From assembly GCF_054482525.1 (NCBI RefSeq), contig NZ_CM137006.1: DNA of 64,000 bases, one strand, 5' to 3'. How positions within the stretch are numbered: position 1 is the first letter of the stretch; the number at the start of each line of letters is the position of its first letter. The position numbers were made by a program, and so were the translations under genes. A model generated the notes under the pieces. It was not told the origin of the DNA and searched no databases. It saw only the letters and a program-made list of their open reading frames with translations. Positions 55,806 to 62,836 of the stretch are shown in pieces.

Positions 55806-57083
55806 TTACTTGCTGCTAGCCATAGCAGGGGCGCTATCAGCAGTACGAATTTTTTGGAACAGCAAAAAGGTAAAGACGATCACCATGGCAAGCGCCGCCA
55901 TGCCCATCAGCCACATATTGCGGTAGGCTTCTGCTGCGGGCAGGGTGTCTTGCCAGTGGCCGATAATTGGGTAAACGAAGACATCCGGCAGGAATCCAAT
56001 CACCGAACAAATACCTACCGTGGTGCCCATAATGTAAGACGGTGTTCTCGCTTCGCCAGGGCAGGCCCAGTACAGCCCGCGTGAGGCGTAACAGGTGAAT
56101 CCCAGAAGTAAAATCAGACCAATCCCCATCGCGACCGATTGCGGGTTAGAGTTCGTGATGAGCAGGGCAGTTAACGCCAGCAGGCCGAGTACGGAAAGGA
56201 TTTGGATCACGCGGGTAGGGGATTTCACTTTGCTGTAAGTGGTGATAATGCCGCCAAGCGGACCGCACAGTGCGCGGAAGATTTTGTTGATCACAATCCC
56301 CATGTAGCTCGCCGCCACCAGCGACATACCGTACATTTCGGTCAGATAGTTGGTGGAGTAACTCAGAATGGCGTAGATGGTGAAGACACCAAAAATCACC
56401 ATGCTGCAATACCAGGTGGTGCTGATGCGCAAAACGGCCAGGATGTCGCTAAGCTGGAATGACTGTTTTTCTTCGTTATTGGTATTGCGTAGGTTGTTGT
56501 TATCGCTAACAAAAAACCAACACAAAATGCCCAGCAGAATGTAAACCACACTGTAGATGATAATGACCGTTTTCAGGCTGGCGCTGTCATCCGGTGCAAA
56601 GCGAGAAAAGACCCACATGGTAAACACCGCCAGCGACATTACACCGACGCCGCGCAGCCCTTCCATCCAGCCCATAATTTTCCCTTGCTCGCTATGATCG
56701 CCCAGCAACGATGCGGCTTTAATCGACACCGACCACAGCATTAAAATCGTCGTTATCGCAAAGGCGACCTGAATACAGAGCATTACCCACAGCGGTGGAT
56801 ATGTTGCCATTAACAGACCCAGTAATCCGGTAATGATCATCGCGGAAGTAATCATTTTGCGGTGTGAAAATTTATCGGCAATAACGCCGCTGGGGGCATA
56901 AAGAATAATAGCCGCAATACCAAAGGTACTCATTATTAAACCTATCTCGGTATTGCTGAATCCCATAAATTTTGCCATGGGAATTTGATAAATATAACGT
57001 AAATAAGCCAGGTCGAAACTAACGCCGCCGCTAAAACTAATTATCGCGAGGGTTATCCAACGGCGATATGAGTTGTGTTGCAT
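55806..57083 (-). CDS. yqcE: MFS transporter
   Basis: 425 aa; 12 TM; first gene of yqcE-ygcE. Confidence 0.88.
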   Translation of the reverse strand: MQHNSYRRWITLAIISFSGGVSFDLAYLRYIYQIPMAKFMGFSNTEIGLIMSTFGIAAIILYAPSGVIADKFSHRKMITSAMIITGLLGLLMATYPPLWVMLCIQVAFAITTILMLWSVSIKAASLLGDHSEQGKIMGWMEGLRGVGVMSLAVFTMWVFSRFAPDDSASLKTVIIIYSVVYILLGILCWFFVSDNNNLRNTNNEEKQSFQLSDILAVLRISTTWYCSMVIFGVFTIYAILSYSTNYLTEMYGMSLVAASYMGIVINKIFRALCGPLGGIITTYSKVKSPTRVIQILSVLGLLALTALLITNSNPQSVAMGIGLILLLGFTCYASRGLYWACPGEARTPSYIMGTTVGICSVIGFLPDVFVYPIIGHWQDTLPAAEAYRNMWLMGMAALAMVIVFTFLLFQKIRTADSAPAMASSK

Positions 57084-57107
57084 ATCGTATTCCCATTTGT
57101 AATAGAC

Positions 57108-57155
57108 AAAAAAAAGAGAAAAGTAAGCCGCCCTTTCAGGTGGATTACTTTTCTC
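57108..57155 (-). terminator. Leader intrinsic terminator about 25 nt upstream of yqcE start (putative attenuator)
   Basis: On minus strand GAGAAAAGTAA-18 nt loop-TTACTTTTCTC (perfect 11 bp) followed by T8 run. Confidence 0.6.
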
Positions 57156-57204
57156 AGGTCTCTAGTAATTGCAATAAGAAATAACATGGAAAGCAGAGGT
57201 GTTG

Positions 57205-57220
57205 TGTGAGAGTAATCACG
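57205..57220. promoter_or_regulatory. CRP-like site, yqcE-proximal
   Basis: TGTGAgagtaaTCACg. Confidence 0.5.
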
Positions 57221-57261
57221 CTTCTGCTTTTTAAAATTATTTGACAATTCGAATATCACAC

Positions 57262-57277
57262 TGTGATTACGATCACA
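57262..57277. promoter_or_regulatory. CRP consensus site, ygcW-proximal
   Basis: TGTGAttacgaTCACA: both half-sites perfect with 6-bp spacer. Confidence 0.6.
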
Positions 57278-57331
57278 TTAGCGATTATGCCCTTATGATA
57301 AAAATTATCTCCAGTTACCAGAGATAATGAG

Positions 57332-57377
57332 AAAGGTAACTTCCCTCTCGCGGGGGAAGTTACCTTTCTTTTTTTTT
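57332..57377 (+). terminator. Leader intrinsic terminator about 25 nt upstream of ygcW start (putative attenuator)
   Basis: AAAGGTAACTTCCC-tctcgcgg-GGGAAGTTACCTTT (perfect 14 bp) followed by CTTTTTTTTT; upstream AGTTACC (57313-57319) can pair with GGTAACT (57335-57341) as an alternative antiterminator. Confidence 0.6.
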
Positions 57378-57401
57378 GCCTTACGGAAATTGGAGCTAAC
57401 T

Positions 57402-58187
57402 ATGTCAATCGAATCTCTCAATGCGTTCTCAATGGATTTTTTCTCCCTGAAAGGTAAAACCGCAATTGTTACCGGCGGGAATAGCGGTTTAGGCCAGGCA
57501 TTTGCCATGGCGCTGGCCAAAGCAGGCGCAAATATCTTTATTCCAAGCTTCGTTAAAGATAACGGCGAAACAAAGGGAATGATTGAAAAACAGGGTGTTG
57601 AAGTTGATTTTATGCAGGTGGATATCACCGCAAAAGGCGCGCCGCAGAAGATAATCGCCGCCTGTTGCGAACGTTTCGGTACCGTCGATATTCTGGTTAA
57701 CAATGCCGGTATTTGTAAGCTGAATAAGGTGCTGGACTTCGGTCGTGCCGACTGGGATCCAATGATTGATGTGAACCTGACCGCCGCATTCGAGTTAAGC
57801 TATGAAGCTGCAAAAATTATGATCCCGCAGAAAAGCGGTAAAATCATTAATATCTGTTCATTGTTCTCTTACTTAGGTGGACAATGGTCACCTGCTTATT
57901 CTGCCACTAAACATGCTCTTGCCGTATTCACCAAAGCCTATTGCGATGAATTAGGTCAATATAATATTCAGGTGAATGGTATTGCTCCGGGATATTACGC
58001 TACCGATATCACTCTGGCGACCCGTAGTAATCCAGAAACTAACCAGCGCGTTCTTGATCATATTCCGGCAAACCGTTGGGGCGATACTCAGGATTTAATG
58101 GGCGCAGCCGTATTCCTCGCAAGTCCGGCATCGAATTATGTCAACGGACATTTATTAGTGGTTGATGGCGGTTATTTAGTGCGCTAA
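57402..58187 (+). CDS. ygcW: Short-chain dehydrogenase/reductase (SDR)
   Basis: 261 aa from ATG at 57402; TGGNSGLG Rossmann motif and YxxxK catalytic pair; ORF track extension upstream spans the leader terminator and is spurious. Confidence 0.88.
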   Translation: MSIESLNAFSMDFFSLKGKTAIVTGGNSGLGQAFAMALAKAGANIFIPSFVKDNGETKGMIEKQGVEVDFMQVDITAKGAPQKIIAACCERFGTVDILVNNAGICKLNKVLDFGRADWDPMIDVNLTAAFELSYEAAKIMIPQKSGKIINICSLFSYLGGQWSPAYSATKHALAVFTKAYCDELGQYNIQVNGIAPGYYATDITLATRSNPETNQRVLDHIPANRWGDTQDLMGAAVFLASPASNYVNGHLLVVDGGYLVR

Positions 58188-58256
58188 TCCATAACGGTGG
58201 TTTCTGTTTTCTCTTATTAATGATTATTCCATTTTTATTATCAGGAAGGAATTACT

Positions 58257-59711
58257 ATGTCTTTATCTCGCGCAGCGATTGTCGACCAGCTAAAGGAAAT
58301 TGTTGGTGCAGATCGCGTAATTACCGATGAAACAGTATTAAAGAAAAACAGTATTGACCGTTTTCGTAAATTTCCGGATATTCATGGTATTTATACTTTG
58401 CCGATTCCGGCAGCGGTCGTAAAACTCGGTTCCACAGAACAAGTCTCCCGTGTGCTGAATTTTATGAATGCGCACAAAATTAACGGTGTGCCGCGTACCG
58501 GCGCTTCCGCCACTGAAGGTGGGCTGGAAACCGTTGTGGAAAACTCGGTGGTGCTCGACGGCTCCGCCATGAATCAAATCATTAATATTGATATTGAGAA
58601 TATGCAGGCCACGGCGCAATGTGGCGTTCCGCTGGAAGTGCTGGAAAACGCGTTGCGTGAAAAAGGTTACACCACGGGGCATTCTCCGCAGTCAAAGCCG
58701 CTGGCGCAGATGGGCGGCCTGGTAGCAACCCGCAGTATCGGGCAGTTCTCCACACTCTACGGCGCAATCGAAGATATGGTCGTTGGTCTGGAAGCAGTAT
58801 TGGCTGATGGCACCGTGACACGCATTAAAAACGTGCCACGTCGCGCGGCTGGCCCGGACATTCGTCACATCATCATCGGCAACGAAGGTGCATTGTGCTA
58901 TATCACTGAAGTAACAGTGAAAATCTTTAAATTCACCCCAGAAAACAACCTCTTCTACGGCTATATCCTGGAAGACATGAAAACCGGCTTCAACATCCTG
59001 CGTGAAATCATGGTGGAAGGGTATCGTCCGTCGATCGCTCGTTTGTATGACGCTGAAGATGGCACCCAACACTTCACCCATTTTGCCGATGGTAAATGTG
59101 TGCTGATCTTTATGGCTGAAGGTAACCCTCGCATTGCGAAGGCGACAGGCGAAGGGATTGCTGAAATCGTGGCACGTTACCCGCAATGCCAGCGAGTGGA
59201 CAGCAAGCTGATCGAAACCTGGTTTAATCACCTGAACTGGGGGCCGGATAAAGTGGCCGCTGAACGTGTGCAGATCCTCAAAACCGGCAACATGGGCTTT
59301 ACCACCGAAGTGTCCGGCTGCTGGAGCTGCATCCACGAAATCTACGAAAGCGTTATTAACCGTATTCGTACCGAGTTCCCGCACGCCGACGACATCACCA
59401 TGCTGGGCGGTCACTCCTCTCACAGCTACCAGAACGGCACCAACATGTACTTCGTTTACGACTACAACGTTGTTGACTGTAAGCCGGAAGAGGAAATCGA
59501 CAAGTACCACAATCCGCTCAACAAAATCATCTGCGAAGAAACCATTCGCCTCGGCGGTTCGATGGTGCACCACCACGGTATTGGTAAACATCGCGTTCAC
59601 TGGAGCAAACTGGAACACGGCAGCGCGTGGACGTTGCTGGAAGGTCTGAAAAAACAGTTCGATCCTAACGGCATTATGAATACGGGTACTATCTATCCGA
59701 TTGAAAAATAA
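58257..59711 (+). CDS. ygcU: FAD-linked oxidase (GlcD / alkyl-DHAP-synthase-like)
   Basis: 484 aa; FAD-binding PCMH-type domain. Confidence 0.88.
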   Translation: MSLSRAAIVDQLKEIVGADRVITDETVLKKNSIDRFRKFPDIHGIYTLPIPAAVVKLGSTEQVSRVLNFMNAHKINGVPRTGASATEGGLETVVENSVVLDGSAMNQIINIDIENMQATAQCGVPLEVLENALREKGYTTGHSPQSKPLAQMGGLVATRSIGQFSTLYGAIEDMVVGLEAVLADGTVTRIKNVPRRAAGPDIRHIIIGNEGALCYITEVTVKIFKFTPENNLFYGYILEDMKTGFNILREIMVEGYRPSIARLYDAEDGTQHFTHFADGKCVLIFMAEGNPRIAKATGEGIAEIVARYPQCQRVDSKLIETWFNHLNWGPDKVAAERVQILKTGNMGFTTEVSGCWSCIHEIYESVINRIRTEFPHADDITMLGGHSSHSYQNGTNMYFVYDYNVVDCKPEEEIDKYHNPLNKIICEETIRLGGSMVHHHGIGKHRVHWSKLEHGSAWTLLEGLKKQFDPNGIMNTGTIYPIEK

Positions 59712-59751
59712 TATGTCAGGCAGCGTTCCGCTATGAGGGGCGTTGCCTTTT

Positions 59752-59781
59752 CGGCTTCTCAGGCGAGAAGCCGTTCTTATT
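59752..59781 (+). terminator. Hairpin with weak U-tract between ygcU and ygcS
   Basis: CGGCTTCTC-aggc-GAGAAGCCG followed by TTCTTATT; a second imperfect hairpin lies at 59719-59747. Confidence 0.4.
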
Positions 59782-59803
59782 ACCGGACAATGAAGGGGTA
59801 AAA

Positions 59804-61141
59804 ATGAACACTTCACCGGTGCGAATGGATGATTTACCGCTTAACCGTTTTCACTGCCGCATTGCTGCGCTCACTTTCGGCGCGCACCTGACCGACGGTT
59901 ATGTTCTCGGCGTCATTGGTTACGCCATTATTCAGCTTACACCCGCCATGCAACTGACGCCGTTTATGGCGGGAATGATTGGCGGCTCGGCGCTACTTGG
60001 CCTGTTTATCGGTAGCCTGGTTTTGGGGTGGATCTCCGACCATATTGGTCGGCAAAAAATCTTCACCTTCAGCTTTTTGCTGATTACGCTCGCTTCGTTC
60101 TTACAATTTTTTGCCACCACGCCAGAGCATCTTATTGGACTGCGCATTTTGATCGGCATTGGTCTGGGAGGCGATTACTCAGTAGGTCACACTTTGCTGG
60201 CTGAATTTTCTCCGCGCCGCCATCGCGGTATTTTGCTGGGCGCATTCAGCGTGGTGTGGACCGTAGGCTATGTGCTGGCAAGTATTGCCGGACATCACTT
60301 TATTAGCGAAAGCCCGGAGGCCTGGCGCTGGCTGCTGGCATCGGCAGCTCTGCCCGCATTGTTGATTACGTTATTACGCTGGGGAACGCCAGAATCGCCA
60401 CGCTGGCTACTGCGCCAGGGGCGTTTTGCAGAAGCTCACGCTATCGTGCATCGCTATTTTGGTCCCCATGTTTTACTGGGCGATGAAGTGGCAACGGCGA
60501 CCCATAAACACATCAAAACCTTGTTCTCTTCGCGCTACTGGCGGCGCACAGCGTTTAACAGCGTCTTCTTTGTCTGCCTCGTAATCCCATGGTTTGTGAT
60601 TTATACCTGGCTGCCAACTATCGCCCAAACTATTGGTCTGGAAGATGCGCTGACCGCTAGCCTGATGCTTAATGCGTTGTTAATTGTGGGCGCGCTGCTG
60701 GGATTAGTTCTGACGCACCTGCTGGCACATCGCAAGTTTTTGCTGGGAAGTTTTTTGCTGCTGGCGGCAACGCTGGTAGTAATGGCCTGTTTGCCTTCCG
60801 GCAGTTCATTAACGCTGCTGCTTTTTGTTCTCTTCAGCACCACCATTTCGGCAGTCAGTAATCTGGTGGGCATTTTGCCTGCGGAAAGTTTTCCTACTGA
60901 CATTCGCTCGCTGGGCGTCGGTTTTGCCACCGCCATGAGTCGGTTGGGCGCGGCAGTAAGTACGGGCCTGCTGCCGTGGGTGCTGGCGCAGTGGGGAATG
61001 CAAGTCACCTTATTGCTCCTGGCGGCAGTGTTGTTGGTTGGTTTTGTCGTGACCTGGCTATGGGCACCAGAAACCAAAGCACTCCCGCTGGTGGCGGCGG
61101 GAAATGTTGGAGGTGCGAATGAACATTCTGTTAGCGTTTAA
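59804..61141 (+). CDS. ygcS: MFS transporter
   Basis: 445 aa; 12 TM; overlaps ygcR start by 23 nt. Confidence 0.88.
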   Translation: MNTSPVRMDDLPLNRFHCRIAALTFGAHLTDGYVLGVIGYAIIQLTPAMQLTPFMAGMIGGSALLGLFIGSLVLGWISDHIGRQKIFTFSFLLITLASFLQFFATTPEHLIGLRILIGIGLGGDYSVGHTLLAEFSPRRHRGILLGAFSVVWTVGYVLASIAGHHFISESPEAWRWLLASAALPALLITLLRWGTPESPRWLLRQGRFAEAHAIVHRYFGPHVLLGDEVATATHKHIKTLFSSRYWRRTAFNSVFFVCLVIPWFVIYTWLPTIAQTIGLEDALTASLMLNALLIVGALLGLVLTHLLAHRKFLLGSFLLLAATLVVMACLPSGSSLTLLLFVLFSTTISAVSNLVGILPAESFPTDIRSLGVGFATAMSRLGAAVSTGLLPWVLAQWGMQVTLLLLAAVLLVGFVVTWLWAPETKALPLVAAGNVGGANEHSVSV

Positions 61142-62755: not shown

Positions 62756-62803
62756 CTTGCTGCCGGATGATCCTGCCTACGGTTCTGGCCTGGGGACTTG
62801 TAA

Positions 62804-62836
62804 GCCTGATAAGACGCGTCAAGCGTCGCATCAGGC
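62804..62836. repeat. REP unit within a BIME between convergent ygcQ and ygcP
   Basis: GCCTGATAAGACGCGTCAAGCGTCGCATCAGGC; flanking partial units at about 62761-62782 and 62845-62871. Confidence 0.6.

Follow-up and report, generated by a model that had tools for sequence, protein, structure and literature searches.

A structurally conserved stem-loop behind ygcU, a possible leaky terminator and mRNA stabiliser within the ygcWUSRQ array of Enterobacterales

Introduction

Hairpins that stabilise mRNA from within an operon are known from the REP elements of malE-malF, from Rhodobacter puf and from the papBA type of intercistronic element. Hairpins in the same position may also end transcription, and operon spacers are well known to hold partial terminators by which expression ratios are set (PMC4824070). 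Conditional terminators form a further group, among which the known targets of the antiterminator GlpP are 5'-UTR terminators with an adjoining binding site (PMC9604022).

Here we analysed the junction between ygcU and ygcS in an E. coli ygcWUSRQ array whose locus also encodes a GlpP-family protein, YgcP; in the literature searched, no discussion of this junction was found. Two consecutive hairpins, H1 and H2, occupy the spacer. Intercistronic terminator-like hairpins are common, and the element as such will not surprise a specialist. We propose, with a probability only somewhat better than even (about 0.55), that H1 and H2 constitute a constitutive, leaky intrinsic terminator and 3' stabiliser, giving more ygcWU than ygcSRQ expression.

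Results and discussion

Genomic context of the ygcU-ygcS junction

A 501-nt query around the junction was a 100% match to E. coli PCN033, and gene coordinates in the window (the whole 64-kb stretch of DNA that was analysed) were taken from the annotation of the PCN033 record. On the plus strand, ygcW (57402-58187; SDR dehydrogenase), ygcU (58257-59711; FAD-linked oxidase) and ygcS (59804-61141; MFS transporter) are followed by ygcR and ygcQ (ETF beta and alpha), which lie 3' of ygcS. The ygcN-O-P genes, with ygcP on the minus strand, converge on this ygcWUSRQ array, and yqcE-ygcE diverge from ygcW. As an earlier sequence-only reading of this DNA had supposed, the cluster contains a GlpP-like antiterminator: YgcP is a full-length protein of the GlpP antiterminator family (PF04309, E = 1.4e-62). 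The convergent ygcQ/ygcP spacer carries a REP-like palindrome, GCCTGATAAGACGCGTCAAGCGTCGCATCAGGC, at 62803-62835, and no canonical terminator was found in it.

The gap between ygcU and ygcS, which are the second and third genes in the same-strand array, measures 92 nt (59712-59803). Its 3' part is taken up by the ygcS translation-initiation block ACCGGACAATGAAGGGGTAAAAATG (plus strand, 59782-59806), which comprises the Shine-Dalgarno sequence GAAGGGG (59792-59798) and the ATG start codon (59804-59806) and is nearly invariant in Escherichia, Citrobacter, Klebsiella and Raoultella.

Structure of H1 and H2

When the RNA of positions 59700-59815, i.e. the spacer with about a dozen flanking bases on each side, was folded, exactly H1 and H2 were obtained, with a minimum free energy of -42.3 kcal/mol; shuffled versions of the same segment averaged -27.3 kcal/mol (sd 3.1), which places the native fold at z = -4.88, and none of 200 folded as well. 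H1 (plus strand, 59718-59748, closed by A59718-T59748) starts 6-7 nt downstream of the ygcU stop codon (TAA, plus strand, 59709-59711) and is an imperfect stem-loop of 12 bp, including three G-U pairs, with a 7-nt loop (GCUAUGA, 59730-59736). Its fold has a predicted energy of -20.0 kcal/mol, and the 11-bp core at 59719-59747 one of -18.4 kcal/mol. A short U-run (TTTT, plus strand, 59748-59751) follows H1 and abuts H2, the next base after UUUU being the C with which H2 begins.

H2 (plus strand, 59752-59773) is a perfect 9-bp stem-loop, CGGCTTCTC-AGGC-GAGAAGCCG, with six G-C pairs, a 4-nt loop and a predicted energy of -14.9 kcal/mol, and it was recovered as terminator-like in a terminator pattern scan. 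The RNA tail directly 3' of H2 reads UUCUUAUU, and the interrupted U-tract TTCTTATT (plus strand, 59774-59781; six of eight positions T) ends 22 nt before the ygcS ATG. H1 and H2 are both GC-rich, short-loop stems 3' of a stop codon, as expected of intrinsic terminators. The earlier description of a 92-bp gap with two hairpins, the second a perfect 9-bp stem with an AGGC loop and a U-rich stretch reaching to 59781, is borne out, including by the folding energies that it had proposed as a check; only the extent of H1 grows, as the hairpin had been noted as the 11-bp core.

An Rfam scan of positions 56500-61000 at E values up to 10 yielded noise only and no match in the spacer. A pairing between the 3' arm of H1 and the 5' arm of H2 was considered as a conserved antiterminator and rejected: it is weak (-12.1 kcal/mol, against -14.9 kcal/mol for H2), H2 forms even with the H1 5' arm blocked, and H1 is confined to Escherichia.

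Conservation of H2 across Enterobacterales

A scan for YgcU, limited to one genome per species, yielded 63 loci, and the gene order ygcW-ygcU-ygcS-ygcR is kept in most Enterobacterales. In nearly all insertion-free Enterobacterales loci examined, a stable hairpin of -14 to -24 kcal/mol starts 5-12 nt past the ygcU stop codon. The H2 sequence itself (CGGCTTCYC-loop-GRGAAGCCG) is recognisable in Escherichia, Citrobacter, Klebsiella, Raoultella, Pluralibacter, Yokenella and others, and a hairpin unrelated in sequence occupies the H2 position in Cedecea, Buttiauxella, Serratia, Rahnella, Limnobaculum, Budvicia, Erwinia and Ewingella. Across an alignment of 34 sequences, 86.8% of the cells of the H2 helix were paired and 7 of the 11 pairs had changed on both sides, a level reached by none of 500 shuffles; slid controls were 39-59% paired. 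RNAalifold with default settings recovered only four pairs from the MAFFT alignment, because the Cedecea and Buttiauxella rows were out of register. As the loop sequences are not conserved, the element is defined by its structure.

The best hairpin within 60 nt after ygcU had a median energy of -19.7 kcal/mol in 56 loci, compared with -12.0 kcal/mol for shuffled sequences and -4.4 kcal/mol for the 60 nt after ygcW in the same comparison, the ygcW-ygcU junction being without a hairpin. The hairpin is therefore a property of the ygcU 3' junction and not of operon spacers in this array generally. Furthermore, it is still present in genera that have no ygcS behind ygcU, and no hairpin was found in Firmicutes and delta-proteobacterial loci, in which etfB follows ygcU at a distance of 45 nt or less. 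H2 is ancestral, and the hairpin is most aptly regarded as the 3' end of the ygcW-ygcU module.

H1, insertions at the junction and the ygcS start

All eight Escherichia alleles that were seen carry H1, with stem-preserving changes, and no other genus has it. The combined H1 and H2 sequence occurs in 5092 of 5426 complete E. coli genomes, and in these 5092 a 70-nt query spanning both hairpins matched a median of one place per genome; membership of the REP/BIME/ERIC or MITE repeat families is ruled out by this single copy. The H1 allele of the window, with a loop one base shorter, is rare, and the K-12 type is common.

This single-base difference changes the reading frame through the hairpins. 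In K-12-type alleles (L066, 420-491), an ATG in the H1 loop (window position 59733) is in frame with ygcS, and in many E. coli genomes the RefSeq/PGAP annotation gives ygcS a 24-codon N-terminal extension that crosses both hairpins. This extension looks like an annotation artefact, since it runs straight through H1 and H2; in NC_000913.3, ygcS starts at the conserved ATG with the GAAGGGG Shine-Dalgarno sequence. In the shorter allele of the window, the ATG at 59733 opens a 22-codon frame that ends at TAA 59799-59801. A coding role for the small ORF from this ATG was rejected, as its frame varies between alleles and no Shine-Dalgarno sequence lies upstream.

In four other species, imperfect palindromes of 50-200 nt lie between the ygcU stop codon and H2, the position held by H1 in Escherichia: Klebsiella spallanzanii (L006, 5456-5640), Enterobacter sp. 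10-1 (L010, 5456-5708), Raoultella terrigena (L056, 5456-5628) and Citrobacter koseri (L008, 3689-3799). Judging by the ERIC primer sequences, these palindromes may be ERIC-like. The alignment of H1 with the right end of these insertions is ambiguous. The site between the ygcU stop codon and H2 is an insertion hot spot.

Two further kinds of insertion were seen in the spacer. In E. coli CFSAN018748, IS200C is inserted exactly after position 59781, between the tail TTCTTATT and ACCGGACAATG, and this copy (L065, 585-1293, corresponding to window 59781/59782) adds its own left-end hairpin between ygcU and ygcS. In Serratia spp. (L041, 5456-5680; L055, 5456-5696), the ygcU-ygcS spacer is enlarged to 225-241 nt and contains a long near-perfect inverted repeat, CCAACCCTCTC...GAGAGGGTTGG, with a folding energy of -100 to -112 kcal/mol, which looks like a miniature mobile element.

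Terminator strength, RNA 3' ends and RNA stability

Terminator strength was expressed as the d'Aubenton-Carafa score d, of which positive values are terminator-like. H1 (11-bp core followed by TTTT) and H2 scored 3.9 and 2.0, respectively, values that are positive but marginal, just above zero. Two attenuators in the divergent leaders of the locus, one before ygcW (plus strand, 57311-57377) and one before yqcE (minus strand, 57108-57172), each with a long terminator hairpin and a run of 8-9 T, reached 41.7 and 31.7. Across genera, the stem behind ygcU is followed by very different tails: the T-run is of textbook quality in Citrobacter sedlakii (d = 44.5), Limnobaculum (38.2) and Pluralibacter (34.3), and a stable hairpin without a usable T-run is found in Citrobacter amalonaticus (-44.1), Rahnella (-37.4) and Klebsiella (-33). 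The U-tract is thus far less conserved than the stem. As the stem is always present and the tail varies, the selected feature is the stem-loop, with efficient termination a lineage-dependent extra, and in some lineages termination itself may not be what is selected.

The same observations bear on the strongest competing explanation, in which no polymerase stops at the junction: the mRNA would be cleaved in the downstream AU-rich stretch, the stems would block 3'-to-5' exonucleases, and the ygcWU segment would outlive the ygcSRQ segment, a behaviour known from the malE-malF REP hairpins. A role in mRNA stability or processing had also been the fallback of the sequence-only reading, and the poor conservation of the U-tract relative to the stem keeps it a live alternative. 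The genera with a stable hairpin and no usable T-run, the unconserved loops and the marginal d values in E. coli all agree with such an element. However, a textbook T-run immediately follows the stem in many genera, and the element, unlike REP, is present in a single copy. Stabilisation and leaky termination can, moreover, coexist, and we consider a pure stability or processing element, one that excludes any stop of the polymerase, unlikely.

In K-12, Adams et al. (2021, PMC7815308) mapped RNA 3' ends at both leaders, one at 2900311(-), 38 nt upstream of ygcW, and one at 2900556(+), upstream of yqcE, and a second K-12 data set (TRS data, PMC10687069) agrees on these ends. Neither of the two published E. 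coli 3'-end maps lists an end within K-12 positions 2897800-2897999, a region that includes the ygcU-ygcS spacer (2897871-2897963). In both maps the 3' ends at the ygcW leader are strong. As transcription was stopped at that leader under the conditions used, little of it reaches the junction, and the missing 3' ends there say little and are not evidence against termination.

Distance to the ygcU stop codon and ribosome coupling

In vivo, the terminator tR2 is almost fully repressed when placed 8-9 bp from a stop codon and reaches an efficiency of approximately 0.9 beyond 30 bp (PMC4824070). This distance effect, together with a stem only 5-12 nt from the ygcU stop codon in almost all insertion-free genera, and 6-7 nt for H1 in Escherichia, suggests a terminator gated by translation: a ribosome finishing ygcU would block folding, and transcription would end only when translation falls behind or fails, as is known from the pyrBI and pyrE attenuators, whose hairpin characteristically lies no more than about 10 nt from the stop codon. 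In E. coli, however, H2 begins 40 nt from the stop codon, outside the repressed range, and still forms when the H1 5' arm is occluded. Close spacing of terminator and stop codon is also common at ordinary gene ends, and we found no evidence for a regulated pause. A translation-gated terminator therefore appears quite improbable.

An evolutionary version of the same idea is equally doubtful: in most enteric genera the hairpin would sit in the 'shadow' of the ribosome that translates ygcU, and the insertion of H1 in Escherichia, or of an ERIC-like element in Klebsiella, Raoultella and Enterobacter, would have pushed H2 out of it. Were it true, ygcSRQ would be transcribed only when ygcU translation keeps step with transcription, and operon polarity would have been rewired in the Escherichia, Klebsiella, Raoultella and Enterobacter lineages.

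Source of ygcSRQ transcripts

A consensus scan found no sigma-70-like promoter near ygcS, and the only RNA polymerase sites listed by genomic SELEX are those in the ygcW/yqcE spacer. The distance from the H2 tail to the ygcS ATG is 22-30 nt. Within ygcU, a promoter for ygcS was considered and rejected: there was no consensus match, and synonymous sites in the last 100 nt of the gene are as variable as in the rest, with no excess conservation. Given the lack of a promoter site, the lack of constraint and the 22-30 nt available, ygcSRQ RNA is most simply explained by read-through from the ygcW promoter, on which we infer it to depend. A perfect CRP-type palindrome, TGTGATTACGATCACA, lies at 57263-57278 between the divergent yqcE and ygcW leaders, and both yqcE and ygcW appear in papers that predict CRP sites or deal with regulation by CRP.

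These data weigh on a further explanation, that the hairpins are an efficient operon-end terminator, with ygcWU and ygcSRQ as separate units and ygcS served by its own, unrecognised promoter. Tandem hairpins are typical of operon ends, and the persistence of the hairpin where ygcS is absent implies that it can act as a true end. Yet the 22-30 nt between tail and ATG leave no room for a promoter 3' of the hairpins, one situated 5' of them would have to read through them, and neither a sigma-70-like site nearby, nor synonymous constraint at the end of ygcU, nor a SELEX polymerase site outside the ygcW/yqcE spacer speaks for either, so that two separate units are highly unlikely.

The leader attenuators and YgcP

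An invariant motif is common to the leaders of ygcW and yqcE: TTAC-AGAG is followed after 4-5 nt by GAGAAA-GTAA, a variable hairpin top, TT-C-TTTCTC and the run of 8-9 T. In these leaders, an upstream AGTTAC can pair with the GTAACT in the 5' arm of the terminator. The motif pattern occurs twice in the 64-kb window, at the two leaders (expectation 0), and a covariance model of it (R1) scored 79.9 and 76.8 bits there. With filters off, the model found no match on the plus strand of 59712-59803, and across 62 related loci all 132 of its matches lay upstream of ygcU and none after it. Across Enterobacterales the model detected two copies per locus, and it also detected copies in Firmicutes loci (L054, L062 and L063). 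The Rfam scan of 56500-61000 returned no family for the leader attenuator, in which we see the probable RNA target of YgcP, the GlpP-family protein.

As the motif is absent from the spacer and the position is intercistronic, H1 and H2 fail the tests of motif and position for a GlpP-type attenuator, and their d is far lower (2-4 versus 32-42). The least credible explanation, a second conditional terminator that YgcP would open and that would divide the dehydrogenases from the transporter and ETF genes, can point to the full-length PF04309 domain of YgcP, to the 3' ends at the ygcW and yqcE leaders, where terminators do act as switches, and to the CTTCCC...GGGAAG of H2 stems in many genera, as at the top of the ygcW leader hairpin, but this likeness is not kept in Cedecea, Buttiauxella, Serratia or the yqcE leader, the motif is missing from the spacer by pattern search, by covariance model and across the 62 loci, known GlpP targets sit in 5' UTRs (PMC9604022), and H1 and H2 offer no convincing alternative pairing that could serve as an antiterminator. 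The sequence-only reading had offered the junction as an operon polarity point and, in particular, as a second termination point under YgcP control; the former agrees with the covarying, junction-specific hairpin after ygcU, and the latter finds no support.

Proposed role and comparison with known systems

In the leaky-terminator and stabiliser reading that we prefer, H1 and H2 together would be the 3'-end structure of the ygcW-ygcU module, with H2 as the ancestral stem-loop of the intrinsic-terminator type directly behind ygcU and H1 as a second one that was presumably added in the Escherichia lineage. RNA polymerases that start at a CRP-dependent ygcW promoter and pass the strong leader terminator would reach the junction, where some would stop at H1/H2, and the stem-loops would protect ygcWU mRNA against 3' exonucleases. 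Those polymerases that do not stop would read through and provide the only recognisable transcription of ygcS-ygcR-ygcQ. Expression is thereby predicted to drop by a fixed step between the two dehydrogenase genes and the genes for the transporter and the ETF, with no switch operated by a ligand or by YgcP; both the partial termination and the stabilising role are predictions from sequence and structure.

This reading would give a transcript architecture to a poorly understood catabolic cluster, consisting of a CRP-dependent promoter, a strong gated terminator in the leader and a conserved weak stop or stabiliser between ygcWU and ygcSRQ. For studies of YgcP, it indicates that the regulated sites are the two leaders and not the ygcU-ygcS junction.

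Among described systems, the element resembles the partial intrinsic terminators of operon spacers (PMC4824070) in its GC-rich stem-loop and U-rich tail directly behind an ORF, in the promoterless same-strand genes 20-30 nt downstream and in its weak predicted strength; it differs in that its U-tract, interrupted in E. coli, is lacking altogether from some genera, and in that termination here is a prediction. The second comparison concerns RNA stability. Like the malE-malF REP, puf and papBA hairpins, the element is a stem-loop behind the upstream genes of an operon, with a stem more conserved than its tail and an expected excess of upstream over downstream product, whereas the ygcU element is present once per genome and not repeated. 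With the ribosome-coupled attenuators of pyrBI and rph-pyrE it shares a hairpin within reach of the ribosome (H1 in Escherichia, H2 elsewhere), but it shows no sign of nucleotide-sensitive pausing, and the better-conserved H2 of E. coli lies well beyond the stop codon. Finally, its likeness to the GlpP-dependent terminators, i.e. the glpD, glpFK and glpTQ leaders of B. subtilis and what appear to be their counterparts before ygcW and yqcE, consists in a terminator-like hairpin in a GlpP-family locus; in contrast to those leaders, H1 and H2 are intercistronic rather than part of a 5' UTR, lack the leader motif and the antiterminator pairing, and are much weaker.
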